Assembly (NCBI GenBank): GCA_022530585.1
Contig: CP092821.1
Coordinates: 134,222-198,221, forward strand
Source of the DNA: Candidatus Nealsonbacteria bacterium DGGOD1a
GTDB lineage: Bacteria; Patescibacteriota; Minisyncoccia; Minisyncoccales; UBA5738
Reading direction: 5' to 3'
DNA: 64,000 bases
Shown here: positions 20,397-34,478 of the stretch, piece by piece
Position numbering within the stretch: the stretch's first letter is position 1
Layout of the letters: each line of letters starts with the position of its first letter
Position numbers and translations under genes: made by a program
Notes under the pieces: generated by a model
Databases searched by the model: none
What the model was told of the DNA's origin: nothing
Seen by the model: only the letters and a program-made list of their open reading frames with translations

Positions 20397-20470
20397 GGTG
20401 GGCGTAGCTCAACGGTTAGAGTTTCGCACTGTGGATGCGAAGGTTGGGGGTCCGAATCCCCTCGCTCACC
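20397..20470 (+). tRNA. tRNA-His (anticodon GTG) with G-1
   Basis: Extra 5' G, acceptor GTGGGCG/CGCTCAC, anticodon stem TCGCA/TGCGA with loop CTGTGGA, T arm GGGGG-TCCGAAT-CCCCT. Confidence 0.85.
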
Positions 20471-20550
20471 CTGCTAGAATTTGAAGCTAAAATTTAATAC
20501 CCTCTACGGGAAATCCGAACCGCTTAACATTTGTTGAGCTTTTTGGTTTG
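20471..20550 (+). repeat. tRNA-His 3'-flank unit, copy U1 (repeated at 28901 and 30349)
   Basis: CTGCTAGAATTTGAAGCTAAAATTTAATACCCTCTACGGGAAATCCGAACC...; followed by TTGACA(20559)-16 nt-TAGTAT(20581). Confidence 0.6.
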
Positions 20551-20653
20551 GCAGCGAGTTGACAGAAATCTGTTTTCGTATAGTATTTTAGGGTAAGATC
20601 GTGAGCACATCTGCTCATAAAAAATAAGGTCGGATTATTAAGGAGAGGATACA

Positions 20654-21127
20654 GTGATACTGGATAAGAGTTTAATCCAAAAAGCGATTGAATTGGTAAC
20701 GCCTGGTGCCGTTGCCATATTGAACAGCGAGGGGACTACATGGGGACCAAAGTTTGCTCATGGGTATGTATACGCAGAAGAATCTGGAGCCGGAGATGTT
20801 GAATTCCATTTCGGCGACATAACTGTTCCATGGGATTCAAAATGGGGCGAGCAAAAAGATTTTGCTTATGTTGCATGGAGAAAGCTCAACGCCGCATGGC
20901 GCGAGAAGAAATCAACAAGTGAGGTTGTTGCCCTTGATCCTTGGCGACTGCGAGAAAAGGAATTTCTCTATTCCGGAGGGGCATACAGATATGGAATTGC
21001 AGTAGGTGTATCAGGGGCCTTGGGTAGAACCGATGAAGCTCTGGCCGAGATGGTTCTTTCTGCGATCATTATGTTAGCAAGGATTGAGGCCGATAAGAGA
21101 ATGGCTGAGCATAGGATGGAAATATAA
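20654..21127 (+). CDS. Hypothetical protein, possibly GlcG/DUF336-like
   Basis: GTG start with strong SD AAGGAGAGG; C-terminal GIAVGVSGALGRTDEALAEMV resembles the DUF336 GAIGVSG..D motif (weak). Confidence 0.5.
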   Translation: MILDKSLIQKAIELVTPGAVAILNSEGTTWGPKFAHGYVYAEESGAGDVEFHFGDITVPWDSKWGEQKDFAYVAWRKLNAAWREKKSTSEVVALDPWRLREKEFLYSGGAYRYGIAVGVSGALGRTDEALAEMVLSAIIMLARIEADKRMAEHRMEI

Positions 21128-21196
21128 AGTTTCAATAAAGGGCTTTGCCCGCTGGGGAATATCAACCTCAGTCTTTTTTTACTCACGCTGCTGTAG

Positions 21197-21231
21197 TCAA
21201 ATAGGTTCGAACATCGTATGCCAGACGACCC
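21197..21231 (+). repeat. Cassette-boundary motif copy 1 of 5 (core CGAACATCG-N-W-TGCCAGAYGACC)
   Basis: TCAAATAGGTTCGAACATCGTATGCCAGACGACCC. Confidence 0.7.
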
Positions 21232-21376
21232 AAGTTATTATATCGTCCCGTTGGAGGGCCGATTTTATCGAAATTATAACCAAAAGGATTATTTTCGGTT
21301 TTTAGTTAATTACGATTGTTGGTATTTACAAAAAATATAAATTGTGGTAAATTAATACTACACTAATTCCAAAAAA

Positions 21377-21754
21377 ATGTTCAAAAATCTTAAAAAGTTT
21401 GGTCAACATTTGAAGGAGTTGCGAACCGAAAAGGGGCTAGGATTAAGGGAGTTTTGCAAAATAGTTGATTACGACCCAAGCAATTGGAGCAAAATTGAAA
21501 GAGGTATAATTGCTCCTCCGGCAGATGAAGAAATTTTGAGAAAGTGGGCGAAAGTATTGGGTATTTCGGGAAAGGAGGAGGCTTTGAGAGATTTTGTTGA
21601 CGAGGCAAGCATAGCCCAAGGTATAATTCCCGAAGATATCCTTTCAAAGGAAAATGCAGTTGAGTATTTGCCCGCTTTTTTCCGTACCGTTCGTAATGAA
21701 AAGCCGACGAAGGAAGATATTGACAATCTTATCAACACAATAAGAAATGCATAG
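21377..21754 (+). CDS. XRE-family HTH transcriptional regulator
   Basis: LKELRTEKGLGLREFCKIVDYDPSNWSKIERG. Confidence 0.8.
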   Translation: MFKNLKKFGQHLKELRTEKGLGLREFCKIVDYDPSNWSKIERGIIAPPADEEILRKWAKVLGISGKEEALRDFVDEASIAQGIIPEDILSKENAVEYLPAFFRTVRNEKPTKEDIDNLINTIRNA

Positions 21755-21817
21755 AGAAGGCTATGAAAAATACCGGTTGAAAAATTCAGGCAGAAAGTAT
21801 GGGACGATACCATTCCG

Positions 21818-22336
21818 GTGGATATTGAGAGGATTGTTGAATTTGGCTTAAAAATAGACATAATACCTACGCCTGGATTGGCGAGATTGTCCAACGCGGA
21901 CGCGCTCATCACTTCCAATTGGGAAGCGGTTTATATTGATAATGCGAAATATATGGACGAGCGTTATCAAAGCCGGATTCGTTTTTCTTTGGCCCACGAA
22001 ATAGGGCATTTTATTTTACACAAGAAGCTTTACGGAACTTTCGGGATAAACGATATTACAGATTTTTATAAATTTTTTGAGCAAATTTCGACAATTCAAT
22101 ACGGATATTTGGAATCACAGGCAAATAAATTCGCCAATCTCTTATTAATACCTCGCGGCAAATTATCGCAAGAAAGGAATAGTTTTTTGCGGGACTTGGA
22201 GGCGATGGGGAATATGCCATCAATTGAAGATGAAAATGTGTTTAATTCATATTTAGCTATTCCTATGGCCAAAGTTTTCGGGGTATCAGAGAAAGTGGCA
22301 GAAATAGCGTTGGGCAATATAAGGGGAGAAAAGTAG
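21818..22336 (+). CDS. ImmA/IrrE-family metallopeptidase
   Basis: HEXXH LAHEIGHFILH; GTG start is the first start codon after the upstream in-frame stop (21764-21766); paired with upstream XRE gene. Confidence 0.75.
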   Translation: MDIERIVEFGLKIDIIPTPGLARLSNADALITSNWEAVYIDNAKYMDERYQSRIRFSLAHEIGHFILHKKLYGTFGINDITDFYKFFEQISTIQYGYLESQANKFANLLLIPRGKLSQERNSFLRDLEAMGNMPSIEDENVFNSYLAIPMAKVFGVSEKVAEIALGNIRGEK

Positions 22337-22534
22337 AAAATAGGGTAAATGGGAAAGCGCCGTGAAATCAATAAGCTTTGATTTTTAATAAATATCTAAG
22401 AACTTGGACAAATAAAGGGGAATTTACAATAATTCCTTTACCGCGGCGATTTTGTAGCGCAAATCTTCCATATATGCCTCGTCTTGGAGGATTTTGATTA
22501 CTTCGGTTATTAGAGCGGATGGTTCCTGACCCTG

Positions 22535-22936
22535 CTAAAAATTAAGTTCAAATTTGATATGCTGTTTTGTCGTTATCCATTCTTCGGGTTTGGCTTTGAG
22601 CTTGATTTTAAAAAATTTGATTTGGAAAAGCAAAATCATAAAAAATTGTTCGCCCTCGAATAGACCTATTCTTTCGCCCAATGCTTGGAAATTGTCGGTG
22701 ATAAAATACCGCCAGCTACTTTCTTTGGAAATTTTGGGATTGAGATAAATTCGATTGTTTTCCGTGTCCGCTATTCCTAAAAGTTTCTTTTTAGCTTTCC
22801 ACCTAACCAACGGACATTTCCCGCGCCTAAAATAAGGGTTCGCGAATTTTTGCAATAATCTGATTTTTGGTTTCATATTTTGTTGTTGTCCCGTTATGTA
22901 TTTTTCCCATTTTATACTTTTTTTATAAATTAACAA
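22535..22936 (-). CDS. Hypothetical protein (TAG stop followed by in-frame 36-codon conserved segment 22424-22534)
   Basis: 133-aa ORF, no recognisable intact motif. Confidence 0.4.
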   Translation of the reverse strand: MLIYKKSIKWEKYITGQQQNMKPKIRLLQKFANPYFRRGKCPLVRWKAKKKLLGIADTENNRIYLNPKISKESSWRYFITDNFQALGERIGLFEGEQFFMILLFQIKFFKIKLKAKPEEWITTKQHIKFELNF

Positions 22937-23039
22937 AAATCAATAAATATAGAAGTCAAACTTGATAACAGGTAAAATTGAAGTTGACTTTTAAGCGTAA
23001 TGTTATATTTTGATTATTAGCAATTTAGAGGTGATTTCT

Positions 23040-23270
23040 GTGGCATTTGAAGTTAAAGAAGGCGAAAGTTTTGCAGATGCTCTTAAAAGAGAAGTCCGCA
23101 ACGGGGTGTTTGTTGAGATATGTGATGTGCAAAGAATGTGGGCGCAACAAAAGAATATCGCGCGGCGATATTTGTGCCCGTTGCCAAGAAAAACTCGTAC
23201 GCAAAAAGAGAAGACAATAAATCTTCTCATTTTAATTTTTAATGATGAGCGATTGTCTGTTTTAAAATAA
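23040..23270 (+). CDS. Small hypothetical protein
   Basis: GTG 23040 preceded by GAGGTGA SD-like; no motif. Confidence 0.3.
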   Translation: MAFEVKEGESFADALKREVRNGVFVEICDVQRMWAQQKNIARRYLCPLPRKTRTQKEKTINLLILIFNDERLSVLK

Positions 23271-23313
23271 AAAAGACGATGGGCGAATTGATTTTATCTT
23301 CGCAACATCGACC

Positions 23314-23964
23314 TTATGCGTATTGTTCTATTGGGCTAAGGCAATTTGTTTTTGTAAATTCCAAATTTTGCAAATCAATTGCCAAATCCAGCATTTTTCT
23401 AAACTCTTGTAAATTCAATTTTCCTTTTATCCTTACCTCCATTTTTCTGCTTACGGCATTGTATATATGCACCTGCCAATCCTCAAACCCCGTAAGCCAG
23501 CAGTAGCATTGGGCTTGGAATGTTCCCGCTATTATTTGCCGTTCTTTGTTGCAAGGATAGCGGTAGGTTTTCAACTCCAAGGCTTCACCGGTATCAATGT
23601 TTAACTTGTCGGGCTGTCCCACAACTTTAATTCTTTGCCCGATATTCTTGCAATAATAATACCGGGGGAATATTTCATCCTGCTCGTATCCCAGGAGCCT
23701 GTGCAGTTCGTTTCCGTTCGGGATTGAACTTTCCGGCCTCCAAGTGGTGTTTAGCCACCAAGTTTCATCTCCGTTAAAGAACAACAGCTTTGTCGCTTCT
23801 CCCGCGGTTATTTTCCTTTCATTCGGCGCAATGTTTTCAACGCATATCCGTATTTTGCTTTTGATGACACCACACCCTTTTTGCCCGCTTATTTTTAGTG
23901 GCTTGTCGAATTTTAAATTTGTAAGCCACTGTATAATGGTGGCATAAATCGAACAATAAGGCAA
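23314..23964 (-). CDS. PD-(D/E)XK nuclease-like (RecB/Cas4-like core motifs)
   Basis: 216 aa; GQPDKL ... EALELKT (D..ExK) followed by QAQCYCW (QxxxY). Confidence 0.45.
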   Translation of the reverse strand: MPYCSIYATIIQWLTNLKFDKPLKISGQKGCGVIKSKIRICVENIAPNERKITAGEATKLLFFNGDETWWLNTTWRPESSIPNGNELHRLLGYEQDEIFPRYYYCKNIGQRIKVVGQPDKLNIDTGEALELKTYRYPCNKERQIIAGTFQAQCYCWLTGFEDWQVHIYNAVSRKMEVRIKGKLNLQEFRKMLDLAIDLQNLEFTKTNCLSPIEQYA

Positions 23965-24123
23965 TTAAGTTTTTTTAAAAGGAATTAAGCTATATTGCGG
24001 CCAATTTTAGCTCGTTGATTGCCTTGATTTTGAACATTAGGCTTTCAATATAATTTCGGTCTTCCAGTATCTTCATTAACTGCGTTATAATACCATTTGG
24101 TACGCGACCCCATTTGCCCGTTA

Positions 24124-24357
24124 TTATAACTTGCTTGTTTTCAAGCAAAGTTTGAAATAAAAGGGTAGGAGTAGCTTTAATGATTTTTTGGTAGCGATAC
24201 CGCCGGCTTGTTTGAATATCGCCAGCGATAATACTTGGATGATCGGCAATGCCAATTTTCGACCGGTTTTGTTTGTGAGCTTGTCAATTTTTAATTGTTG
24301 TGAAAAAATACTTACCACCTTCCTGATTTCGTTGTAAAATGGAATTACAACTTTCAT
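24124..24357 (-). CDS. Short hypothetical ORF, possibly a gene remnant
   Basis: 77 aa; double stop; a homolog of the 22424-22534 segment follows in another frame (23990-24123). Confidence 0.3.
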   Translation of the reverse strand: MKVVIPFYNEIRKVVSIFSQQLKIDKLTNKTGRKLALPIIQVLSLAIFKQAGGIATKKSLKLLLPFYFKLCLKTSKL

Positions 24358-24441
24358 GTTGGTGTTGAGTCGGCGATTTACCGGTCGCCGGCTCTGGTGT
24401 CATTTTAGCATTTTTTAGGAGTTTCGTAATTCAAAGAAATT

Positions 24442-24684
24442 ATGAAGAAGATTTTAATCGTTTTATTTTTATTGGTTGGTTTACACTTAATATACTTAAT
24501 ATGGTATTTTGGGGGCTATTTGATTCCAGATAGGGCCGATTGCAGTTTGTATAATTACGAGAGGTGCCCTGTTGGTTGCGAAGCGAGTTGTCATAGTAGC
24601 TGTAAAGCGTGTCTGGATAAAATTTGCGATTGTTCTTCCGGGACCGATGTTAGCATATTCCATTATTTTGGGTGGGGTGAATAA
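24442..24684 (+). CDS. Small membrane-anchored Cys-rich protein
   Basis: 80 aa; TM then CSLYNYERCPVGCEASCHSSCKACLDKICDC; GTTTCGTAATTCAAAG box 5 nt upstream of ATG. Confidence 0.5.
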   Translation: MKKILIVLFLLVGLHLIYLIWYFGGYLIPDRADCSLYNYERCPVGCEASCHSSCKACLDKICDCSSGTDVSIFHYFGWGE

Positions 24685-24789
24685 TTAAGTGTTATGCACA
24701 GATTTTATCCTTTGAGAGATGATATTCAGAGTTGGTGCCATCTTTCTTAAAAGTCAAGGCGGTATGGATATTCTAATTTTTTAAAAAGT

Positions 24790-25182
24790 ATGCAAAACAA
24801 AATCAATAAATTTGTTTATTGGGCGCCGCGAATATTATCAATACTGTTTATATTGTTTTTGGCGATGTTTTCGCTGGATGTTTTTGAAGAGGGCAGGAGC
24901 TGGCAGGAAATCGCCATTGCGTTATTTATGCACAATGTTCCGGTGTTGGCTTTGCTGGCGGTATTGATTATTTCCTGGAAGCGTGAAATCGTGGGCGGCG
25001 TTGCGTTTATCTTGGCGGGCATATTGTATATTGCGATGGTAGCGGCGGGTGTTTTGAAAAATGGGTTTGAGTGGTATATGGTTTCGTGGTTTTTAACAAT
25101 TTCGGGGCCGGCGTTTTTGATTGGCGGTTTATTTTTGGTTGCTTGGCATAGAAAGAAGGATAAAACTATCAAAAAATCTTAA
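24790..25182 (+). CDS. Integral membrane protein (4 predicted TM)
   Basis: 130 aa, four hydrophobic stretches. Confidence 0.6.
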   Translation: MQNKINKFVYWAPRILSILFILFLAMFSLDVFEEGRSWQEIAIALFMHNVPVLALLAVLIISWKREIVGGVAFILAGILYIAMVAAGVLKNGFEWYMVSWFLTISGPAFLIGGLFLVAWHRKKDKTIKKS

Positions 25183-25279
25183 CGGTGAAAATTGCAATAT
25201 AAATTCTCATATTATAAGTTTCGCCGCGAAGTTATAATATGGGATTTGACTACACATTGATAATGTGTATAATTGAGGT

Positions 25280-25543
25280 ATGGAAAATCAAAATAATTCT
25301 ACAACTTATCAGCGGGTTGACATTACCCTTCCGAAGGAAACAGTCAGATTGCTTGAAAAAATCGCCAAGCGAGGCGATAGGAGCCGGTTGGTTGACCAGG
25401 CGATTCGTTATTTTGCCAAGGAAATGAGCCGAACTAATTTGAAAAAGCAGTTGAAAGATGGTGCGATAGTTAACGCTTCGCGAGATTTGAATTTGGTTGA
25501 AGAGTGGTTTTCAATCGATAATGAAGTATGCCCAAGCAAATAA
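25280..25543 (+). CDS. Ribbon-helix-helix (CopG/MazE-like) antitoxin
   Basis: YQRVDITLPKETVRLLEKIAKRGDRSRLVDQAIRYF; 16-nt overlap with mazF. Confidence 0.75.
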   Translation: MENQNNSTTYQRVDITLPKETVRLLEKIAKRGDRSRLVDQAIRYFAKEMSRTNLKKQLKDGAIVNASRDLNLVEEWFSIDNEVCPSK

Positions 25544-25890
25544 TTCCAAAACGAGGCGAGGTTTATTTGGTTAATTTTGACCCAACCATCGGTTCGGAAA
25601 TCAGAAAAACGAGGCCGGCTTTGATTATTCAAAATGATATTGCCAATCGTTATAGCCCGATAACGATTGTCGCGGCGATAACTTTGCAAGTTGGGGAGCG
25701 GATTTATCCAACCGAGGTGTTGATAGAGTTCGGGCGGAGTGATTTAGGCAAGCGGTGCGTGGTTTTGTTGAATCAAGTACGGGCGATTGATAAACAACGA
25801 TTAGTTAAAAGATTGGCGGTTTTTGATTCGGTTTTGATGGAAAAGATAAATCAGGCGTTGGAGATTAGCTTGGGATTAGTGGATTTATAA
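25528..25890 (+). CDS. mazF: MazF/PemK-family endoribonuclease toxin
   Basis: PKRGEVYLVNFDPTIGSEIRKTRPALIIQND. Confidence 0.85.
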   Translation: MPKQIIPKRGEVYLVNFDPTIGSEIRKTRPALIIQNDIANRYSPITIVAAITLQVGERIYPTEVLIEFGRSDLGKRCVVLLNQVRAIDKQRLVKRLAVFDSVLMEKINQALEISLGLVDL

Positions 25891-25921
25891 ACAGAAAGAG
25901 AGGGTTGAATTACCTCTCTAA

Positions 25922-26506
25922 TTATTGTTGCATAAACCAGGGCATCCCTACTCTTGCACTTGTTGCGTCCTCAAGGCCATTTCCGTCATCAAAAATTTCC
26001 TTTAATGTTAGTGGGAAATCTCTGATTAGTGGGAGGGGGCCGAGAAGATTTGTGAGCGAGAAGAACATTTCAGTTGTTTCCTCGTCAACTTTTACGGGAA
26101 GTCCAAGATTGTGTGCGTAGCTTGCCAGTTTGTTGACGCAATCCCATTGATGGAACCCTCCAAGAATTATCTCGGTTATATTTGAGATTTGGCCAAAGAT
26201 AGATTCCGGGTTAGGGTATTTGCGATGTTGGGTATGTTCTTTGAAGGATAATCCTGCCGAAATTATGGTGTCTTCCGGCTCTATTGTTATCCAACTGGCG
26301 AGCAAATCTTTGTCCGGTTTGTTCGGCGCGTTTTCTTGACCGAATAAAAGCCAGACTATTTTGTATTTTTTCTTACGATACCGTGCGCGAATGATGTCGT
26401 TTAATCTGCGCACATCATATTTGCCGTTTCTGAATTGATAAAAATTACCTATCTCATTTTCAAAGAACGGCTTAATTGGATAGAGGAATAAGAAAACCTT
26501 CATCAA
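25922..26506 (-). CDS. Hypothetical protein, weak isochorismatase/cysteine-hydrolase-like pattern
   Basis: 194 aa; IILGGFHQWDCVNKLASYAHNLGLPVKVDEE resembles the G..td.CV..Ta motif. Confidence 0.4.
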   Translation of the reverse strand: MMKVFLFLYPIKPFFENEIGNFYQFRNGKYDVRRLNDIIRARYRKKKYKIVWLLFGQENAPNKPDKDLLASWITIEPEDTIISAGLSFKEHTQHRKYPNPESIFGQISNITEIILGGFHQWDCVNKLASYAHNLGLPVKVDEETTEMFFSLTNLLGPLPLIRDFPLTLKEIFDDGNGLEDATSARVGMPWFMQQ

Positions 26507-26556
26507 ATTACCTCAATGGCATATTACACCATAATCATTCAAAATCAAGAATTGAT

Positions 26557-26590
26557 GAAGCAGGTGCGAACATCGATTGCCAGACGACCA
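26557..26590 (+). repeat. Cassette-boundary motif copy 2 of 5
   Basis: GAAGCAGGTGCGAACATCGATTGCCAGACGACCA. Confidence 0.7.
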
Positions 26591-26702
26591 AGCTTCAAAA
26601 AGTCGCTCAGCGGGCGGTTTTTTGGCTGGATGGGCGTAGGCGGGGTTTAGAAAAACCAGAGTTGACACCATTTTCACGACACCATTTTTCGTGCGCCAAA
26701 CC

Positions 26703-28170
26703 TGTCAAATACAAGTAGAAATGTCATACCCGGAATTTAAGTAGAAATGTCATACTTGACTTTTGTAGAATTAGTATTGTTATTTCCGGAAAAATATTTT
26801 AACAATTGATTTTTGCGATTTCAGCGGCGATTTGTTTGCGCCAAGGATGATCCGCCGGTGGCTTGGAGATGATTCTTTTTGCCGGTATGGCGGCAATCAA
26901 TTCTTTGGCTTTCAACGGCTTGGCCGGCAGGATTTTGAAGTTTAAATATTTATCCCGCAGACGGATCGCCAGCGATCCGTCGAGCCGCTCTTCCATCAAA
27001 ATTTCATCCTTGCGGCGCACGGTGGCGATCTGCTCTTTGGCGATCTGTATCCATTGGTTTTTGAACCTTATCGTGAAATCATTCTGTACCCGCCTTTGCG
27101 ATTGGACGGAAAATATCGCGTCAAGATTTGAACTTTGAAAATCGGGCAGCTGCCGGTGCAGATCGTTTTTCTTTTTGGGAATCACCGAAAATCTTTGATT
27201 GAAATCCGGAATGAATTCTTCTTTTAAGAATTTGCTGGCCGCGGCGATATCGCTGATGCCGCGCAATCGCAATTCCTTGACCAGCCGGTCCTGCAAAGTG
27301 TCAAAGAGCCGTTCGATTCGGCCTTTGGCTTGCGGGCTGTTGGCGGTGATCAGGGTTATATCCAGTTCCCGGGCGGCTCTCTGAAACTGGGTGATCATTT
27401 CGCTGTTGTCTTTTGCATTTTTGTGATTGATCTTATATGTACTGAATTTATCCAGGTAGATGGCTATCGGTTTGCCTGATTCTTGGAGGTAGCCTTTCCA
27501 GAATTGAAACACATTGATGACGCTTTCGCTATCCGTGAATTCCGCCCGGGTGATCCGGCCGGTGGCATCGTCGACGGAGGCCAACAAACAAGATTCATCG
27601 CCGCGTTTCTCAAACCAGAAGTGGTAACAGCCGTCGAATTGTTCCAGCTCGCCCGGCGATTCTTTGCGTTCTCTTTGGCAGCGGAATTCCTGGTTTTGTT
27701 TTCTTGGTTTGGGCATCCAAATCTTTTTTGCGATCATTAAATTGCGCGTGGTCTGCTTGCCAATTTTTATTCCTTCAACCTCAACCAGTTTTTCATGCGC
27801 CAAGGTCGGGCCGAAATCAGGATACTTTTCTGAAATTATTTGTCCGGATTTTTCCCAGATTTTAAGATCGGTCTTATTGTTGCTTTGCTTGCCTCGCAAG
27901 CCGTGAATGATCCCATTGGCGCCTTTCTCCCGCACTTTGTTGCGCAATCGCTTTACCTGCCTTACCGACCGCCCCAGCTGCTTGGCCGCATCGCCCGGAG
28001 TGATTTCTTTGGCGATCAATTTTCTTATTACTTCATACCTGTCCAGCTCTTTTTGCGTCATCTTGAATAATTCTTTTTCCATATTGGTGGGTTATGTTTT
28101 ATCCACCAATCATACCAGGTATGACATTTCTACTTGGACGCAAGTATGACATTACTACTTTTAAATGACA
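26703..28170 (-). mobile_element. Insertion sequence, ISNCY/IS1202-group-like, with 15-bp direct duplication
   Basis: ~27-bp imperfect terminal IRs starting TGTCA (23/27 match). Each end holds two copies of AAGTAGAAATGTCATAC (26713, 26739; inverted at 28119, 28144). Flanked by TTCGTGCGCCAAACC at 26688-26702 and 28171-28185. Confidence 0.75.
26799..28082 (-). CDS. DDE (rve-type) transposase, ISNCY/IS1202-like
   Basis: 427 aa; N-terminal HTH MTQKELDRYEVIRKL..AAKQLGRSVRQVKRL..GLRGKQSNNK; catalytic region DD..D..SPQAKGRIERLFDTLQDRLVKELRL. Confidence 0.85.
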   Translation of the reverse strand: MEKELFKMTQKELDRYEVIRKLIAKEITPGDAAKQLGRSVRQVKRLRNKVREKGANGIIHGLRGKQSNNKTDLKIWEKSGQIISEKYPDFGPTLAHEKLVEVEGIKIGKQTTRNLMIAKKIWMPKPRKQNQEFRCQRERKESPGELEQFDGCYHFWFEKRGDESCLLASVDDATGRITRAEFTDSESVINVFQFWKGYLQESGKPIAIYLDKFSTYKINHKNAKDNSEMITQFQRAARELDITLITANSPQAKGRIERLFDTLQDRLVKELRLRGISDIAAASKFLKEEFIPDFNQRFSVIPKKKNDLHRQLPDFQSSNLDAIFSVQSQRRVQNDFTIRFKNQWIQIAKEQIATVRRKDEILMEERLDGSLAIRLRDKYLNFKILPAKPLKAKELIAAIPAKRIISKPPADHPWRKQIAAEIAKINC

Positions 28171-28267
28171 TTCGTGCGCCAAACCTTGACAGAATGAGCC
28201 AAAAACTGGTATCTTTTAACTATCAACGCCCCGGCCAGCCGTAAGGTCCGCCGGGGTTTTCCTAAAC

Positions 28268-28870
28268 ATGGAAAGCATATTATTTGTCGATGGCCGCAAT
28301 TTTATCAATAAGATTGAAGTTGTTTTGCGCGAAAATAAAATCAAGAGCATTGATTATTCTTTGTATAATTTTGGCGGGTTGATGGATAAAGTTTTGACGG
28401 GAATAAGAGTTGACCGCCGATTGTTCTATTTTGGAAAACTGGTCAAACATTCGGAAACTTTGGAGAAATCAGCCAAACTTATCGAAAACCAAAGAAAACT
28501 AAAAACCAGCTTGGAAAAGCAAGGTTTTGAAATTGTCATTGCCGGCAGGATTCGCGGCCATTTGGAAAAATGCCAAAAGGGACATGAAATGTTGGTTTTT
28601 AAGGAAAAGGGCGTGGATGTGAAACTTGCGGTTGATATGGTTACGTTGGCTTGCAATAATAAACTGAAAACAGCCATTGTTGGCAGTTCGGATTCTGATT
28701 TGCAGCCGGCAATCAGTGAATTAAAAACGCACGGTGTTGAAAGAATCTATCTTGGCTTTGAAACGGCTCCCAACAAGGGGCTAACATTTACCACCAACAG
28801 AACGATCCTTATTAGAAATTCCGAGGTTTTGGAATTTTTACCAAAAACCTTATTCTCAAAAGATAGTTAA
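28268..28870 (+). CDS. NYN-domain (LabA-like) predicted RNase
   Basis: ILFVDGRNF ... GVDVKLAVDM ... IVGSSDSDLQPAI. Confidence 0.75.
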   Translation: MESILFVDGRNFINKIEVVLRENKIKSIDYSLYNFGGLMDKVLTGIRVDRRLFYFGKLVKHSETLEKSAKLIENQRKLKTSLEKQGFEIVIAGRIRGHLEKCQKGHEMLVFKEKGVDVKLAVDMVTLACNNKLKTAIVGSSDSDLQPAISELKTHGVERIYLGFETAPNKGLTFTTNRTILIRNSEVLEFLPKTLFSKDS

Positions 28871-28901
28871 ACAGGCTCGAACATCGTTTGCCAGACGACC
28901 C
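28867..28901 (+). repeat. Cassette-boundary motif copy 3 of 5
   Basis: TTAAACAGGCTCGAACATCGTTTGCCAGACGACCC, starts inside the NYN stop codon region. Confidence 0.7.
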
Positions 28902-28985
28902 TGCCAGAATTTGAAGCTGAAATCGACTTACCCTCTACGGGGAATCCGAACCCGCGAACATGCGTTGAGCGGTTTTGGGTATAGT
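28901..28985 (+). repeat. tRNA-His 3'-flank unit, copy U2
   Basis: CTGCCAGAATTTGAAGCTGAAATCGACTTACCCTCTACGGGGAATCCGAACCC... about 80 percent identical to U1 by eye; followed by TTGACA at 28999. Confidence 0.6.
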
Positions 28986-29061
28986 TGGTGTGCTTTGCTT
29001 GACATAATGTATACTAAAGTGTTATATAGTATATATCTTAATGATCTAAGCATACTAACTT

Positions 29062-30192
29062 ATGAAAATAGAGATAGGCAAGCTCCAAGGACAAAAAGAA
29101 GGATTTTCTGCCTTCGTTCCTTCTCAGTTTCCGCCAGAAGGTATTTTTGATTTAACCGCGTCCACTCTCATTAAGACTTCAGAGGCGGCGCGGTTAGTTG
29201 GAAAATTGGACGGTATTACTCATACGCTTCCCGATTTGGAGTATTTTCTAACGATGTTTGTTAAAAAAGACGCGGCATCGTCGGCGCAAATCGAGGGAAC
29301 AAGAGCGACAATGATCGACGCCATTGAAAAAGCCGCTGGCGTGGCGACTTCGGAAACTGACGCCGATGACATTTTGTTTTACATTAAAGCTCTCGATTAC
29401 GGAGTCGTGCGACTGAAGGAATTTCCGCTTTCGCTAAGATTGATAAGAGAAATCCACGCCCAATTGATGACTGGCGCCCGCGCAAGCCATTTTGCCGATC
29501 CGGGAGAATTCAGAAAATCACCGAACTGGATCGGTGGAACAACCCCATCGAATGCGTTATTCGTTCCGCCGCCAGTCGAAGAAATGCATCGGGCGCTCAA
29601 CGATTTTGAAAAATTCCTTCATAACGAAAAATCAACTTTGCCGCTGGTCCATATTGCCATCGCGCACGGGCAATTCGAAACTATCCATCCTTTTTTGGAT
29701 GGAAACGGAAGGACGGGCCGGTTACTGATTACTATGTTGTTGTGCCATAGAAATTTGCTGGAGCGGCCAGTGCTTTTCCTCTCCTCCTATTTCAAAAAGC
29801 ACCAAAAAATTTATTATCAGAAGCTTCATGGTTACCATTACGGCGAAGTTGAAGAATGGATAAATTTTTTTCTGGACGGAGTGATTGAAACCGCTAACGA
29901 ATCAATTGCCATATCAAAGTTGATAACCAAAATTCGTGGAAACGACTTAGAGAAAATACAATCGCTGGCCAAAAGAGAATCGGAGAGCGGAGTCAAGGTT
30001 CTTCGGAAATTATACGCGCAACCGATAGTGGCTTCGAAAACGATTATGGACTGGACCGGGTTTACCAGGGCGGGTGCACAGAAGCTGATCGACCGATTTG
30101 TGAAAATCGGAATTTTGGAATTAAAGGAAAACAAAACTGGCTACGACCGTTCCTATATTTATCGCGAATACACAGATGCGTTTTCGGCTTAG
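29062..30192 (+). CDS. Fic-family protein (AMPylase-type, canonical motif)
   Basis: HPFLDGNGRTGRLL; Fic_N-like N-terminus and C-terminal winged-helix region. Confidence 0.9.
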   Translation: MKIEIGKLQGQKEGFSAFVPSQFPPEGIFDLTASTLIKTSEAARLVGKLDGITHTLPDLEYFLTMFVKKDAASSAQIEGTRATMIDAIEKAAGVATSETDADDILFYIKALDYGVVRLKEFPLSLRLIREIHAQLMTGARASHFADPGEFRKSPNWIGGTTPSNALFVPPPVEEMHRALNDFEKFLHNEKSTLPLVHIAIAHGQFETIHPFLDGNGRTGRLLITMLLCHRNLLERPVLFLSSYFKKHQKIYYQKLHGYHYGEVEEWINFFLDGVIETANESIAISKLITKIRGNDLEKIQSLAKRESESGVKVLRKLYAQPIVASKTIMDWTGFTRAGAQKLIDRFVKIGILELKENKTGYDRSYIYREYTDAFSA

Positions 30193-30259
30193 GGAAATAA
30201 ATGGCGGGTTAAGGGGCGGGGTAATCGTTAAAGCGAATTTGACGCTGTATAATATTCCG

Positions 30260-30294
30260 TCAAACAGGCGCGAACATCGGTTGCCAGATGACCC
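30260..30294 (+). repeat. Cassette-boundary motif copy 4 of 5
   Basis: TCAAACAGGCGCGAACATCGGTTGCCAGATGACCCC. Confidence 0.7.
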
Positions 30295-30348
30295 CTTCTA
30301 CGCTAAAGCTTCGAAGGGCAAGCTCTTCGACAAGTTCAGGCCTGCGGT

Positions 30349-30420
30349 CTGCCAATTTTGAAACTAAAATTTGCTATCCTCTGCGGCAAATCCGCGCTGA
30401 TTTTAAGCTAGTTGTTTTGT
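30349..30420 (+). repeat. tRNA-His 3'-flank unit, copy U3 (more diverged)
   Basis: CTGCCAATTTTGAAACTAAAATTTGCTATCCTCTGCGGCAAATCCGCGC... Confidence 0.5.
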
Positions 30421-30431
30421 TGCAGTTAGTT

Positions 30432-30482
30432 GCCTTAATCGTATCAAAATGATACGATTAAGGCATATAAATGATACGATTA
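30432..30482 (+). promoter_or_regulatory. Candidate operator: perfect 14-bp-arm palindrome plus a third half-site over the Fic-like gene start
   Basis: GCCTTAATCGTATC-AAAAT-GATACGATTAAGGC, then GATACGATTA again at 30473-30482. Confidence 0.55.
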
Positions 30483-31540
30483 TGCAACAATTATCCCAAA
30501 AACAGCAAAAAATCCTTTCGATTTTGGTAAAAAATGGCAAGATGTCGTCTTCAGCTATTCGCGAGGCGTTGCTCAAAGCAAAAGAAAATGTGGCACTGAT
30601 TACTGTTAAAAGAGCGTTATCGGAAATGGTTGATGCCGGGGTTATAATTGAGGCCGGCGGGGGAAGATCAACCGTTTATGGAATTGGTATTCCCGGCAGG
30701 GTATTTTTTGATATTGATGCAAGGGATTATTGCGCCGTTGAACCGGATTGGCGTTATGGGTTGAGCCGCTATAATTTTGATTTGTTTGCAAAGATGCCCA
30801 CGGAAGTATTTTATGACGAAGAAAGGGCAAGGCTTGAGGCGGCGACAAAAACCTACAAACAAAGATCGCAAAATGTTACACCGGTAACGCAAAAAAAAGA
30901 ATTGGAGCGGCTGATAATTGAGCTATCGTGGAAATCTTCAAAAATAGAGGGCAACACTTACACATTGTTGGAAACCGAAAAACTTATTTTGGAAAATAAA
31001 AAGGCAGTTGGCCGCAGCGAAAACGAAACCCAGATGATATTGAACCATAAAGACGCTTTTGATTTTGTTCGCCAAAACCAGCAGGAATTCAAAAAAATAA
31101 GCCGCGCCAATCTTGAAAAACTCCACTCGATTTTAGTGAAAGATATGGAGGTCGGTTTTGGTTTGCGCAAGGCGCCGGTTGGGATCACGGGCACCAAATA
31201 CCAGCCGCTTGATAATATTTACCAGGTCGAAGAAGCGGTTAAGACGCTTTCCGCGGCGGCGGATAGAATGGAGAATATTTTTGCAAAGTCATTGCTGGCG
31301 GTTTTGGGCATAAGCTATGTTCAGCCGTTTGAAGACGGCAACAAGCGCACCGGCCGCTTAATGGCCAATGCATTGCTTTTATCCCACAGTCTGGCGCCGC
31401 TTTCGTATCGCAGCGTCGACGAAACGGATTACCGCCAGGCAACAATAGTATTTTACGAACTCAATTCGATGATACCTTTCAAAGAGATTTTTATCGGACA
31501 ATGCGAATTTGCGGCCAATAATTACGCGCTTGGATTATAA
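30482..31540 (+). CDS. wHTH + Fic-fold protein with degenerate active-site motif
   Basis: QPFEDGNKRTGRLMANALL in place of HxFx(D/E)GNGRxxR; N-terminal ILSILVKNGKMSSSAIREAL..ITVKRALSEMV; ATG 30482 preferred to 30449, which lies inside the palindrome. Confidence 0.75.
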   Translation: MQQLSQKQQKILSILVKNGKMSSSAIREALLKAKENVALITVKRALSEMVDAGVIIEAGGGRSTVYGIGIPGRVFFDIDARDYCAVEPDWRYGLSRYNFDLFAKMPTEVFYDEERARLEAATKTYKQRSQNVTPVTQKKELERLIIELSWKSSKIEGNTYTLLETEKLILENKKAVGRSENETQMILNHKDAFDFVRQNQQEFKKISRANLEKLHSILVKDMEVGFGLRKAPVGITGTKYQPLDNIYQVEEAVKTLSAAADRMENIFAKSLLAVLGISYVQPFEDGNKRTGRLMANALLLSHSLAPLSYRSVDETDYRQATIVFYELNSMIPFKEIFIGQCEFAANNYALGL

Positions 31541-31574
31541 GAACAAATGCGAACATCGTATGCCAGACGACCCC
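31541..31574 (+). repeat. Cassette-boundary motif copy 5 of 5
   Basis: GAACAAATGCGAACATCGTATGCCAGACGACCCC, 1 nt after the Fic-like stop. Confidence 0.7.
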
Positions 31575-31595
31575 GGTAGGGGATGATTTTGTGTC

Positions 31596-31695
31596 ATTGG
31601 AAAAAAATTGCTAATTGGCGGTTTTTAATTTGGTTTTGATGGAAAAAGTAAATCAAGCTTTATAAATGAACTTGGGGTCGGTGGTTGATTTATAA
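31596..31695 (+). pseudogene. Remnant of a second mazF/pemK 3' end
   Basis: Translates NLAVFNLVLMEKVNQAL*MNLGSVVDL* versus RLAVFDSVLMEKINQALEISLGLVDL* at 25811-25890. Confidence 0.55.
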
Positions 31696-31719: not shown

Positions 31720-32493
31720 ATGGCTAAAGAGAATAAATTAATAAATGAATCCAACTTAAGATTGATTTGCGAATTGCATTTGGGGTTGGAGCGGCAGGGG
31801 CCGGGCAGTCCTGAAATGACTATCAAGGCATTGAGCTTTGTGGATAATCTTGATAAAAATTCGCGGGTGGCGGATTTGGGTTGCGGAACCGGCGGGCAGA
31901 CGATGGTTTTGGCGCAAAATATTGACGGGAATATCACCGGCGTGGATTTTTTCCCCGGTTTTATAGATATTTTTAACGACAATGCCAAAAAATTAAATCT
32001 TCAAGGAAGGGTGAAGGGGATTGTCGGTTCAATGGAGAATCTTTCTTTTCAAAAAGAAGAATTTGACTTGATATGGTCGGAAGGGGCGATTGCCGGGATT
32101 GGTTTTGAGAAAGGGTTAAATTATTGGAGGGATTTTCTAAAAAAAGACGGCTATGTTGCTTTAACTTACGAGTCGTGGTTTACCGATGAACGCCCGGCGG
32201 AAATTGAAAAGTGGTGGGTTGATAATGTTCCTGAAATAAGCACGATAGGAAATAATATTTCAATAATGCAAAAATCGGGATATATTCCTGTTGCCGCATT
32301 TATATTGCCCGAAAATTGCTGGACGGACAATTATTTTGTCCCGCGGGAAGCGGCGGGAAAAGCGCTTTTGGAAAAATACGCCGGGAACAAAACTGTGGAA
32401 GATTTTATCGCAAATATGAGATACGAAGCGGAATTGTATTCAAAATACAAGCAGTATTACGGATATGTTTTTTATATCGGGAAAAAGATTTAA
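31720..32493 (+). CDS. Class I SAM-dependent methyltransferase
   Basis: Motif I VADLGCGTGGQTMVLA; 257 aa. Confidence 0.8.
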   Translation: MAKENKLINESNLRLICELHLGLERQGPGSPEMTIKALSFVDNLDKNSRVADLGCGTGGQTMVLAQNIDGNITGVDFFPGFIDIFNDNAKKLNLQGRVKGIVGSMENLSFQKEEFDLIWSEGAIAGIGFEKGLNYWRDFLKKDGYVALTYESWFTDERPAEIEKWWVDNVPEISTIGNNISIMQKSGYIPVAAFILPENCWTDNYFVPREAAGKALLEKYAGNKTVEDFIANMRYEAELYSKYKQYYGYVFYIGKKI

Positions 32494-32585: not shown

Positions 32586-32687
32586 TTACATTACGAAACC
32601 ATCGTTTTTAAATGTTTTGAAGGGGTCGCACCCCTGCGATTACACAGGGGAACGACCCCAAAATGCAAAGCGTTTCGTGATTCAAAA
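32586..32687. repeat. Palindromic intergenic element family A, short-core copy (inverted orientation)
   Basis: CATTACGAAACC...GAAGGGGTCGCACCCCTGCGATTACACAGGGGAACGACCCC...CAAAGCGTTTCGTGATTCAAAA. Confidence 0.65.
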
Positions 32688-32702: not shown

Positions 32703-33191
32703 ATGGAAAAAAAGATATTCGCGGTTGTTTTATTTTCGTTTTCCTTGTTTACATTTTCGCCGTTGGCGGCGAACGCGGCGTGTTCGCAGGTGGCGGGGAA
32801 AACATATTATAGCGATAGCGTGAGTTACTTTAAGGATTCGGCGTGCCACCAAGAAATGAGTGCGGCCGATGTCGAGGCGGCGGGCGTTGGTTATATTTCC
32901 ACGGGAAGCGCGAATTGCAAATATAATATTTCAAAAAAACAATATACCGACGGCACTTCTTTTTTTCTCAATAATAAATGTACCGATGAAGCCGCGCCGG
33001 GAGAAACCGCGGCCGCGCCCACGACTCAAACCGTGACTGCCCAAACCCAAACCCAAACGCAAGCGCAGGTTGCGGTCGCTGACGCGACTCAATACGCGCA
33101 AATGAACCAGAGGATCGCGGCGCTTGAAAATCAAGTAAAAATTTTAATGCAAATTATCACGCAGGTCTTGGCGCTGTTGGCGAATAGATAA
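32703..33191 (+). CDS. Secreted protein with Thr/Gln-rich linker and C-terminal coiled-coil tail
   Basis: Signal peptide ending LAANA|A; ends QRIAALENQVKILMQIITQVLALLANR. Confidence 0.6.
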   Translation: MEKKIFAVVLFSFSLFTFSPLAANAACSQVAGKTYYSDSVSYFKDSACHQEMSAADVEAAGVGYISTGSANCKYNISKKQYTDGTSFFLNNKCTDEAAPGETAAAPTTQTVTAQTQTQTQAQVAVADATQYAQMNQRIAALENQVKILMQIITQVLALLANR

Positions 33192-33267
33192 AAGGGAAGC
33201 ATTGCGCTTGTTTTATGCGCGAGTTGCCCGACGGCGTGTATATTTTTGATTAAGTTCTTGTTATAAT

Positions 33268-33427
33268 GGGTCTGTCGCCGAATTGGCTTCAACCGCGATT
33301 TCCATTTTTCGGCTGCAAAGAATTCATCATTCGTCGCCGGATTTAGCTTAAATATGCCTCCTCATTCTTCATTCTTTTCGCTCGAAAACTGAAAATTTCG
33401 TTCTGAAGCTAATTCGGCGACAGACCC
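33268..33427. mobile_element. 160-bp MITE-like element, family B, copy 1
   Basis: TIRs GGGTCTGTCGCCGAATTGGCTTCA / TGAAGCTAATTCGGCGACAGACCC; flanked by ATAAT on both sides. Confidence 0.65.
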
Positions 33428-33505
33428 ATAATGAACGCGGGAGGGCGCCGCATCAAAATCGGCGGTTGCGATTTTGCCGGTTTGCCGTAACAAAATCAAA
33501 TCAAT

Positions 33506-33898
33506 ATGAGCGAAACAAAAAAAGTTTTGGTCATTGACGACGAAATCGTTCTGCTTGATCTTTTGAGTTCAAAAATAAGCCAAAACGGTTTTTTCGTGAT
33601 CGAGGCGCATGACGGCGACGAGGGCTTGCAAAAAGCGCTGGCCGAACATCCCGATCTGGTGTTGCTGGATATTATAATGCCCAAGATGGATGGCATCACA
33701 ATGCTGAAGAAACTGCGAGAAGATCCTTGGGGAAAAACGGCACGGGTGATCATTCTTTCCAATTTGAATACCGCCGAGGCGGTGGAAAAATCTTTGGCCA
33801 ACGGCGCTTATGATTATTTGGTGAAGATCGACTACACGCTTGACGATTTGGTGAGGATTGTTAAAAAAAGGCTTGAAAAGAAAAGGGATTCCCGATGA
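33506..33898 (+). CDS. Single-domain response regulator (receiver)
   Basis: VIDDE, LVLLDIIMPKMDG, ILSN, YLVK. Confidence 0.85.
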   Translation: MSETKKVLVIDDEIVLLDLLSSKISQNGFFVIEAHDGDEGLQKALAEHPDLVLLDIIMPKMDGITMLKKLREDPWGKTARVIILSNLNTAEAVEKSLANGAYDYLVKIDYTLDDLVRIVKKRLEKKRDSR

Positions 33899-34242: not shown

Positions 34243-34314
34243 GCGGGCGTCGTATAGTGGCTATTATGTGACCTTGCCAAGGTTAAGACGAGAGTTCGAT
34301 TCTCTTCGCCCGCT
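34243..34314 (+). tRNA. tRNA-Gly (anticodon GCC)
   Basis: Acceptor GCGGGCG/CGCCCGC, anticodon stem TGACC/GGTTA with loop TTGCCAA, T arm GAGAG-TTCGATT-CTCTT; 72 nt. Confidence 0.85.
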
Positions 34315-34359
34315 CAAATTTAAGAGCCGCTCTTGCAAGAGCGGCTCTTAAATTTGAGC
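34312..34359 (+). terminator. Intrinsic terminator after tRNA-Gly
   Basis: GCTCAAATTTAAGAGCCGCTCT-TGCA-AGAGCGGCTCTTAAATTTGAGC followed by GGTTTTTGTTTTT. Confidence 0.65.
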
Positions 34360-34478
34360 GAGGTTTTTGTTTTTCGTTCGGTTGGTGTTTATTTGACAAC
34401 GGCTTTTTTGTTTGCGAAAATGAATCAATGGGGATAGTGTTTTTTGTTGAATAATTAATATTCCCGAAAAATTCATTT

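Follow-up and report, generated by a model that had tools for sequence, protein, structure and literature searches.

A near-invariant 33-nt element at the cassette junctions of tRNA-His-anchored gene arrays in Patescibacteria: a candidate recombination site

Candidatus Nealsonbacteria bacterium DGGOD1a is a symbiont of the Parcubacteria/Paceibacteria, which is grown in laboratory enrichment culture and has a closed genome of 1.16 Mb; a protein encoded beside the tRNAs studied here is identical to one recorded for this organism. Why does this genome carry the same short sequence again and again, always in the same orientation, between genes that follow its tRNA-His? We addressed this question for a stretch of 64,000 nt from contig CP092821.1 (positions 134,222 to 198,221 of the forward strand; "the window" means this whole stretch), in which a 33-nt element, here called M (AAACAGGTKCGAACATCGNTTGCCAGACGACCC), occurs in five copies, all on the plus strand. 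The description of the DGGOD1a genome reports genomic islands with toxin-antitoxin genes as well as 39 transposases and does not mention this repeat (10.1101/2022.04.20.488981). We found no description of M in the searchable literature, neither under integrons or tRNA-His islands in Patescibacteria or Parcubacteria nor under the sequence itself. We propose, at chances that we regard as evenly balanced, that M is an attachment-type recombination site of small gene cassettes, which lack an integrase of their own, make use of a recombinase encoded elsewhere and accumulate head-to-tail downstream of tRNA-His in Patescibacteria of the Paceibacteria type.

The original prediction, which was made from the sequence alone, had listed five copies in the same orientation. 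All of them could be confirmed, and their starts had been placed correctly within 2 nt. The core pattern CGAACATCGNNTGCCAGAYGACC has exactly five matches in the window, which are located on the plus strand at 21208, 26567, 28878, 30271 and 31550 and contain no mismatch; raising the tolerance to 3 mismatches revealed no further match in the 64 kb, and 100 dinucleotide shuffles of the window contained none. The five copies are as follows.

21199-21231, plus strand: M1, AAATAGGTTCGAACATCGTATGCCAGACGACCC (pattern match and profile of M)
26558-26590, plus strand: M2, AAGCAGGTGCGAACATCGATTGCCAGACGACCA, followed by a bidirectional terminator module, TTCAAAAAGTCGC..GCGGTTTTTTGG
28869-28901, plus strand: M3, AAACAGGCTCGAACATCGTTTGCCAGACGACCC, whose first bases overlap the stop codon of the NYN gene
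30262-30294, plus strand: M4, AAACAGGCGCGAACATCGGTTGCCAGATGACCC (pattern match)
31541-31573, plus strand: M5, GAACAAATGCGAACATCGTATGCCAGACGACCC, the last copy in the window (pattern match and profile of M)

Four of the five copies are preceded, at a distance of 0-72 nt, by the stop codon of a plus-strand gene, i.e. a 157-aa gene, NYN, Fic and HTH-Fic (HTH, helix-turn-helix), with 72 nt for M1 (gene 20654-21127), 70 nt for M4 (Fic) and 1 nt for M5 (the Fic-like gene), in agreement with the gene positions given earlier. M2 is preceded by an open reading frame (ORF) on the minus strand. All five copies lie in the island that begins at tRNA-His, and none in the other 50 kb. A weak copy of the core, which had been suspected inside a second repeat called U (copy U2, about 28954-28968), turned out to be the stem of the terminator that belongs to U itself (CCGMTTAACATTTGTTGRGC in other U copies); a search with the profile of M does not detect it.

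Across 76 copies, M varies freely at two positions only, namely position 8 (G/T, 38:38) and position 18 (A 46, T 21, G 5, C 4). These lie ten bases apart and split the element into the three conserved blocks AAACAGGT, CGAACATCG and TTGCCAGACGACCC. The invariance of the core is partly due to the way in which the copies were found, i.e. with a scan pattern, but this pattern did not include the AAACAGG block and the final CC. Both edges are sharp: the bases to the left are unconserved and include a T-rich tract at about -22 to -9, and the signal to the right fades over four bases (C, t, G, y), which gives a junction consensus of ...GACGACC up to the edge and C(T)G(C) beyond it. The two free positions make or break 6-bp palindromes at M 7-12 and 14-19 (T8 gives TTCGAA, A18 gives ATCGAT), which may be incidental.

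The element is not confined to this genome. Exact-pattern scans located M in 11 low-GC contigs from genome bins, most of which carry the label Patescibacteria or Paceibacterota, and in about 29 contigs of low GC content from metagenomes, and after removal of redundant contigs there were 86 copies in 36 low-GC loci (loci outside the window carry L numbers below). The wider search for the core that the original prediction had suggested thus found M in co-oriented arrays across Patescibacteria-like contigs. In each of the 20 loci with several copies all of them are on one strand, and the orientation of M tracks the array rather than the neighbouring gene. The copies are spaced by 185-5360 bp (median 860 bp). 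Stop codons of co-oriented ORFs precede 67 of 77 copies by 0-122 nt; at least 30% of the copies have a terminator within the next 110 nt, compared to 7% of random positions, and at least 17% of the copies, M1 included, are located downstream of a terminator. About 16-18 high-GC matches of the scans were discarded, since they represent coding sequence (reverse strand V-V-W-Q-x-M-F) without the AACAGG block. M and U are absent from the 2.9 million viral contigs of IMG/VR (three pattern scans), and a query consisting of M3 plus U2 had no match among the INPHARED phage and PLSDB plasmid records. Homologues of the 157-aa protein upstream of M1 (L059-L063) are encoded in regions without M.

Two further observations concern islands and tRNA loci apart from these arrays. 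L059, which belongs to the same genome bin as L011, harbors a second accessory-gene island without M (Fic, GmrSD, HNH, ArsP and others), which has intergenic modules of its own, i.e. a family of terminator hairpins and a promoter-region repeat of about 79 nt that is present four times. A degenerate M (GGTGCGAAGATTGATTGCCAAACGGCCC) is found at L066 11133-11162 and L067 6995-7024, beside an HTH-Fic homologue of 83% identity and about 5.7 kb downstream of tRNA-Lys, in a genome in which no canonical M was seen. From the latter it appears that decayed cassettes may occur at other tRNA loci as well.

What happens at M becomes apparent when the flanks of different copies are compared. The genes to its left and right assort independently: at the gene level (420 nt on the left; 450 nt on the right, starting 90 nt past M), 35 pairs of M copies have a flanking gene in common, 21 of them only on the right, 11 only on the left and 3 on both sides. 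In the alignments, similarity begins at the first A of M (position 0) or stops at ...GACC(C). The module that follows M is either U or a bidirectional terminator running straight into an extended -10 element, and it usually travels with the gene to its right. From this we conclude that a cassette is built up, in this order, of a terminator/promoter module, one to a few accessory genes, and M.

Cassettes are acquired and lost, become duplicated and enter new combinations, and the breakpoints of these events lie at M. In L048, a unit of 873 bp reaching from one M to the end of the next is duplicated within one array; the two units are 98.7% identical, and their left-hand M copies differ from each other. 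This locus also contains the first cassette of the window twice, at internal positions and bounded by M. Over 1437 bp, which include tRNA-Arg, tRNA-His and two cassettes, the identity between L033 and L037 is 99.2%; from 24 nt past the second M onwards the two are unrelated. Two relatives of the organism of the window, L064 and L065, were reached through homologues of the HTH-Fic protein. The blocks which L064 shares with the window are 94-99% identical. L064 contains an additional cassette of 2036 bp exactly between the counterpart of M3 and U2. An additional block of 2318 bp, which encodes a 2-hydroxyacid dehydrogenase and an EamA protein and includes a degenerate M, fits exactly between its M4 counterpart and what comes after M4 in the window. 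The more distant relative L065, which carries tRNA-His, has a 219-aa ORF at one of these two junctions and PhdYeFM-ParE at the other. Three lineages hence display three different states at the same two M sites, which is hard to explain by deletion alone. The question whether the copies mark boundaries of insertions and deletions can therefore be answered positively, and the reading as a recombination site, one of two that had been put forward for M, gains support, since similarity stops at the edges of M and relatives differ by whole M-bounded cassettes.

At the M3 junction, the window copy combines all five diagnostic bases of the left-hand L064 copy with the right flank of the right-hand copy, so that this exchange took place between positions 19 and 32 of M. 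Several breakpoints within M are located near positions 17-20, beside the variable position 18, and may or may not mark the point of cleavage.

Homologous cassettes in different contigs are 68-86% identical at the nucleotide level and M is nearly invariant; as judged from this comparison, M seems to be maintained for its own sake and not for the neighbouring genes. Conversely, an internally deleted M in L002 and a truncated one in L046 stand behind the HTH-Fic gene, and M is interrupted by a small hairpin insert in the NYN cassette of L011. Since the genes beside these decayed copies are intact, M is apparently dispensable for its neighbour. Of the M2 counterpart, L064 retains no more than the last 12 nt at the 3' end, and these are joined to unrelated sequence.

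The arrays are furthermore tied to one tRNA. In nine independent loci (window, L001, L007/L046, L027, L033, L037, L044, L052, L065) the array starts about 400-1100 nt downstream of tRNA-His (GTG) and on the same strand, and every array with a visible start begins at tRNA-His. Often, tRNA-Arg is located just upstream of tRNA-His and a type IV pilus operon before tRNA-Arg. In the window, the start of the array consists of two features.

20398-20471, plus strand: tRNA-His (GTG), the proximal anchor of the array, which ends in ...CTCACCC (ARAGORN and Rfam)
20472-20549, plus strand: U1, the trailer of tRNA-His (about 80 nt), TGCYARAATTTGAAGCTAAAWTT..TACCCTCTRCGGGAAATCCGAACCG plus a terminator at 20522-20539

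U is located directly 3' of tRNA-His in all eight loci examined, and the gene behind it differs from locus to locus, with the exception of L033 and L037, which have the same gene in the first cassette. U is also repeated after M in many cassettes; in the window, U2 directly follows M3, and a degenerate U3 follows M4 beyond a 54-nt insert. The U repeat that had been noticed earlier is therefore real, and the placement of U across the loci bears out that M occupies the place of the tRNA-His 3' end relative to it. RNAalifold on 38 copies of U returned no pairs and no consensus structure. In some cases (L006, L034, L022), U is preceded not by M but by ...GGCACCC, which suggests that the short junction ACC^CTGC is what matters.

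M itself has a T-arm-like block at its start (CAGGTTCGAA) and, like tRNA-His, ends in ACCC. Its best local alignment is to the tRNA-His type of L001, L027, L044 and L046 (ACGGGTTCGAATCCCGTTGGTCACCC), with z-scores of 3.4-5.3 relative to shuffled M and about 60% identity over T-arm and ACCC end; M is 5 nt longer and cannot form a T-arm. The alignment to tRNA-Arg (z about 3) is due to the shared T-loop alone. The likeness to a tRNA-His 3' end that the original prediction had pointed out is thus clearest with the type found in other loci and reaches only z 0.7 with the tRNA-His of the window, and judging from these scores the resemblance to the 3' half of tRNA-His appears real but modest.

Small palindromic repeats seem to favour the junction between M and U as a place of insertion. 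Short inserts of the CTTCGACAAG / CTCAGG / GGCAAG type are located exactly between the two in the window (30295-30348), L018, L007/L046, L039, L034 and L003, and once inside the 3' end of M (L011, near 5590). A larger hairpin-rich insert of 110-130 nt, always between M and U, is present in L034 (821-930 and about 3088-3197) and in L006 (from M at 4754 and 4199 to the next U). It shows long-range pairing (CTGTAGTAG...ACACTACAG), an internal terminator-like hairpin and a second stem of 10 bp, ends in ...GGCA(A)CCC and has no match in Rfam. The insert may be an RNA gene or else a small mobile element with this junction as its target. A purine-rich module, TAGTTGATGAG, and further GATGAG-like repeats follow M in L001, L011 (three copies) and L002 (4330-4350) and may be compared with window 31574-31600.

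Next, we considered what kind of sequence M could be. Single-stranded DNA (ssDNA) folding of both strands of the five window copies, each with 20-30 nt of flank on either side, gave z-scores of -1.06 to +1.41 relative to shuffled sequences, i.e. no structure. The repeat search of the window reported no inverted repeat, inverted partner or dyad at M, no inverted copy of M is present in any locus, and its complement does not occur elsewhere in the 64-kb window. The labels attC-like and dif-like, which the original prediction had considered, are hence not supported. At gathering score, Rfam 15 matches only three tRNAs in the window, none of them at M, and in E-value mode M3 plus U2 yielded nothing better than E = 8 and an insert, E1, nothing relevant; the ends of the insertion sequence (IS) in the array are unrelated to M. 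A remnant of coding sequence or a tiny ORF was rejected after the three plus and three minus frames had been read by eye against the per-position counts: minor variants slightly favour the third positions of one plus-strand frame, but several third-codon positions, indeed most of them across the 76 copies, do not vary in any frame, and stop codons arise through C-to-T variants. This is in line with the earlier statement that M is not a coding remnant. Sigma-54 and extracytoplasmic function (ECF)-type promoters were compared by eye with consensus sequences and rejected because their spacing does not fit.

Our preferred explanation is that a recombinase encoded elsewhere in the genome recognises M as a double-stranded, asymmetric site of 33 bp, with strand exchange at or near its 3' edge (...GACC^CTG). 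As the end of tRNA-His (...CACC^CTGC) matches this edge, tRNA-His/U would be a related site, and the shared short end sequence would explain why the arrays are anchored there. The T-loop-like block and the ACCC end point to a possible origin from, or mimicry of, a tRNA-His 3' half bound by the same enzyme. Site-specific recombination at M would account for the sharp junctions, for insertions and deletions of single cassettes and different cassettes at one M, for the uniform polarity of the arrays and the selection on M itself, and for two tolerant positions that are one helical turn apart. General homologous recombination between M copies seems less likely. If two copies differ at both position 8 and position 18, the identity between them is broken up into stretches of 8, 9 and 14 nt, which is short for RecA-dependent exchange, and a cassette could enter at a single M only by way of a circular intermediate.

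Several points weigh against a dedicated recombinase acting on M. No such enzyme was identified in the loci or window ORFs scanned. The locus set comprised 103 non-redundant ORFs of at least 170 aa from the clustered ORFs of a first group of loci, and the window set all island ORFs of at least 125 aa and 20 ORFs elsewhere in the window; among the families listed (all but 11 weak ones of the locus set), Pfam reported no integrase, resolvase or HUH domain in either, and there is none in the precomputed Pfam annotations of L059-L067. The only genes found that are not cargo encode two DDE-type IS transposases. The cargo includes Fic, DUF2726, staphylococcal-type nucleases, NYN, DNA methylases, restriction enzymes and M78 peptidases, and further RelE/ParE/MazF toxins, APH-type kinases, binding proteins and AbiEii. 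M is also unlike a classical core site in that it shows no dyad symmetry, inverted partner or ssDNA hairpin, and its 33 nearly invariant nucleotides hold more information than a typical protein-binding site, which could point to recognition by base pairing or to a function as RNA. The point of exchange is not fixed, as the M4 junction is uninformative and the breakpoints in L046, L064 and L002 are located inside M (at about 17-20). Furthermore, M is probably transcribed, since it is usually located between a stop codon and a terminator, and neither a circular cassette nor an excision product was observed. Given its near-invariance, M may be recognised by a nucleic-acid guide or an HUH-type nickase rather than by a classical integrase.

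A conserved RNA element in the 3' untranslated region had been offered as the alternative to a recombination site; it is weakened, but is still the chief competitor of our explanation. In this reading, M acts primarily at the RNA level in the 3' untranslated end of cassette transcripts, as a signal for processing or stability at ...ACC^C which imitates the tRNA-His end, as the seed of a 3'-UTR-derived small RNA (sRNA) ending in the next terminator, or as a target for an RNA-binding protein or an antisense RNA acting in trans, and the shuffling is a by-product of recombination between repeats. This is compatible with the position of 67 of 77 copies shortly (0-122 nt) after a co-oriented stop codon, the excess of terminators within 110 nt (at least 30% versus 7%), the occurrence of the same U trailer and terminator after M and after tRNA-His, a near-invariance over 33 nt that suits base pairing better than protein binding, and the lack of structure in M, which is general among sRNA seed regions. 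Yet at least 17% of the copies, including M1, lie behind a terminator, the ORF before M2 is on the minus strand, L002, L046 and L011 have lost or truncated M beside intact homologous genes, M is oriented with the array in all 20 multi-copy loci, the 64-kb window holds no complement of M elsewhere, and there is neither an Rfam family nor covariation, for which reasons we consider a primary role at the RNA level unlikely. That M is a selfish short repeat, either of the kind of repetitive extragenic palindromic (REP) sequences and miniature inverted-repeat transposable elements (MITEs) or an IS/transposon end, which accumulates in the island, is very improbable. M is indeed short, intergenic and multi-copy, other small palindromic inserts populate the same junctions, and the host genome is reported to contain 39 transposases (10.1101/2022.04.20.488981). 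However, REP sequences, bacterial interspersed mosaic elements (BIMEs) and MITEs are palindromic, dispersed and found in both orientations, whereas M has no palindrome, inverted partner or target duplication, occurs in a single orientation at a fixed position at cassette 3' ends, and within the 64 kb is confined to the island (5 copies, versus none in the other 50 kb). A terminal repeat would have an inverted partner, a transposase gene lying between the two copies and a target duplication; no locus contains an inverted copy of M, and the inverted repeats of the array IS are unrelated to M.

The architecture of the arrays is integron-like and their position is that of a tRNA-anchored island, while M is neither attC nor dif. 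The position raises the question whether the island is a scar field, left by successive integrase-bearing elements that targeted tRNA-His and later lost their integrases, with M as a functionless attR-type partial tRNA remnant between cargo genes. In 9 loci the arrays adjoin tRNA-His at its 3' end, one tRNA-His type can be aligned to M through its 3' half (z 3.4-5.3), and the ...GGCACCC in front of some U copies (L006, L034, L022) resembles tRNA-His acceptor ends. Tandem integrations with partial tRNAs in between are documented for the tycheposons of Prochlorococcus, whose islands likewise abut a tRNA 3' end in a streamlined genome and consist of units parted by direct repeats in place of this end, some of them without integrase (10.1101/2020.12.28.424599). 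In the tycheposon islands, however, the repeats are true partial tRNA copies and integrase-bearing elements are present, whereas M is a distinct and better-conserved 33-mer that does not appear to be a plain copy of the tRNA-His beside it (z 0.7 in the window), the arrays scanned contain no integrase gene or fragment, and their units, most of which comprise one gene (median 860 bp), are much smaller. M is far more strongly conserved than the surrounding cassettes, which is not expected of a scar without function, M and U do not occur in 2.9 million viral contigs nor M3 plus U2 in the phage and plasmid records, and close relatives show recent differences by single cassettes at M; we therefore regard a scar field as a rather remote explanation. 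The architecture, in turn, recalls integron arrays, i.e. clusters of attC sites lacking integron-integrases (CALINs) and sedentary chromosomal integrons with array-specific attC, which share with M arrays co-oriented, mostly single-gene cassettes with a conserved site directly after the ORF, independent assortment, duplication, a cargo of toxin-antitoxin, defence-type and unknown genes, and whole-cassette differences between close relatives. It is hardly credible that the arrays are true integron fragments with M as part of attC, which the fold and symmetry tests largely refute: attC is an imperfect palindrome that folds as ssDNA (R''-L''...L'-R') and has a GTTRRRY core, whereas M is linear, unstructured, asymmetric and conserved at the level of bases, without a hairpin on either strand, a reported inverted-repeat partner (R''/R' or L''/L') or GTTRRRY at the junction. 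Moreover, the arrays and window ORFs scanned contain no intI, the arrays have no attI or Pc platform and start at tRNA-His, and their cassettes carry their own promoters and terminators. The Xer/dif site (about 28 bp, with two inverted 11-bp arms and a 6-bp spacer) differs from M by its dyad, of which some M copies show only the incidental TTCGAA or ATCGAT.

Further known systems are comparable in part. Integrase-less, cis-mobilisable elements accrete in tandem beside integrative and conjugative elements (ICEs), which is a parallel to the tRNA-anchored island. The sfx sites of the R64 shufflon, recognised by Rci, show that a tyrosine-recombinase site may be asymmetric, with one conserved and one non-conserved arm, as in M with its variable right flank, but they are 19 bp long, stand in inverted orientation, serve inversions within one gene cluster and have the recombinase gene adjacent to them. 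The minimal mobile elements and intergenic mosaic repeat arrays of Neisseria are similar in presenting alternative cassettes at a fixed chromosomal site, in bacteria presumed to take up DNA, and mosaic short-repeat junctions; there, however, homologous recombination takes place in long conserved flanking genes, and the cassettes have no 33-bp site each.

The contents of the array in the window and the beginning of its distal flank are listed below.

20550-21198, plus strand: body of cassette 1, with a promoter-like site (20559-20586), the 157-aa gene (20654-21127, no Pfam family) and a terminator (21151-21172)
21232-26557, mixed strands: cassette 2, a multi-gene block between M1 and M2
21377-21754, HTH; 21818-22336, M78 peptidase; 24790-25182, DUF7670; 25528-25890, MazF: genes of cassette 2
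22535-22936, 23314-23964 and 25922-26506, minus strand: further ORFs of cassette 2
26591-28868, plus strand: cassette 3, with the terminator module, an inserted IS (26703-28170), a promoter-like site (28186-28215) and the NYN gene (28268-28870)
28902-30261, plus strand: cassette 4, with U2 (28902-28979), a promoter region and the Fic gene (29062-30192)
30295-31540, plus strand: cassette 5, with a 54-nt palindromic insert (30295-30348), the degenerate U3 (30349-30399) and the HTH-Fic gene (30449-31540)
31614-31695, plus strand: copy of the mazF 3' end, 80% identical to 25812-25890, just after M5 and before a methyltransferase gene (31720-32493)
34243-34315, plus strand: tRNA-Gly, in the conserved distal flank together with a secreted 162-aa protein (32703-33191) and a response regulator (33506-33898)

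Homologues of cassette 5 that start at M are present in L046, L064 and L065. In L056, mazEF is directly followed by the same methyltransferase gene, so that the 5.7 kb between the two mazF copies of the window look like a later insertion or rearrangement. The IS-like element of cassette 3 contains a 427-aa ORF on the minus strand (26799-28082), in which only N-terminal HTH domains were found. Each of its terminal inverted repeats comprises two subrepeats of about 20 nt (AAGTAGAAATGTCATAC), and it is flanked by an unusually long direct repeat of 15 bp (TTCGTGCGCCAAACC, window 26688-28185). In L064, the site is empty and uninterrupted with one copy of the 15-mer, which indicates that the insertion is recent. 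The distal flank, consisting of the secreted 162-aa protein, the response regulator and tRNA-Gly, is common to the window, L046 and L064. Directly 3' of tRNA-Gly, a perfect palindrome of 25+25 nt (34311-34360) is probably its terminator. Upstream of the response-regulator gene, at 33263-33432, there is an inverted repeat of 29 nt (93% complementary, arms 112 nt apart), and the 170-nt stretch holding it recurs in L064 at 98% and, inverted, at about 71%. The leader of the gene for the secreted protein (32621-32660) contains a nested-helix motif, GGGGTCGCACCCCYG...(variable hairpin)...CRGGGGAACGACCCC, which is also present in two intergenic regions of the Patescibacteria contig L059 (4040-4098 and 8128-8180), has no Rfam match at gathering score and could represent a cis-regulatory RNA not described before.

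The ultra-small bacteria of the Patescibacteria (candidate phyla radiation) have tiny genomes, and little has been established about how they obtain new genes. M marks a hot spot at which toxin, nuclease, Fic, restriction-modification and other accessory genes are swapped cassette by cassette, also between close relatives. More tentatively, we suggest that these bacteria possess a gene-capture platform of their own, anchored at tRNA-His, in which single-gene cassettes move in and out at a linear, unstructured site of 33 bp; it would be an analogue of the integron that works by a different mechanism and with an enzyme encoded elsewhere. If a dedicated enzyme does act on M, this would represent a new cassette-recombination system with a simple, linear 33-bp site, of interest to the study of mobile elements and possibly as a tool. 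Even if there is no dedicated enzyme, M is a practical marker to find and delimit the flexible gene pool of uncultivated Patescibacteria.

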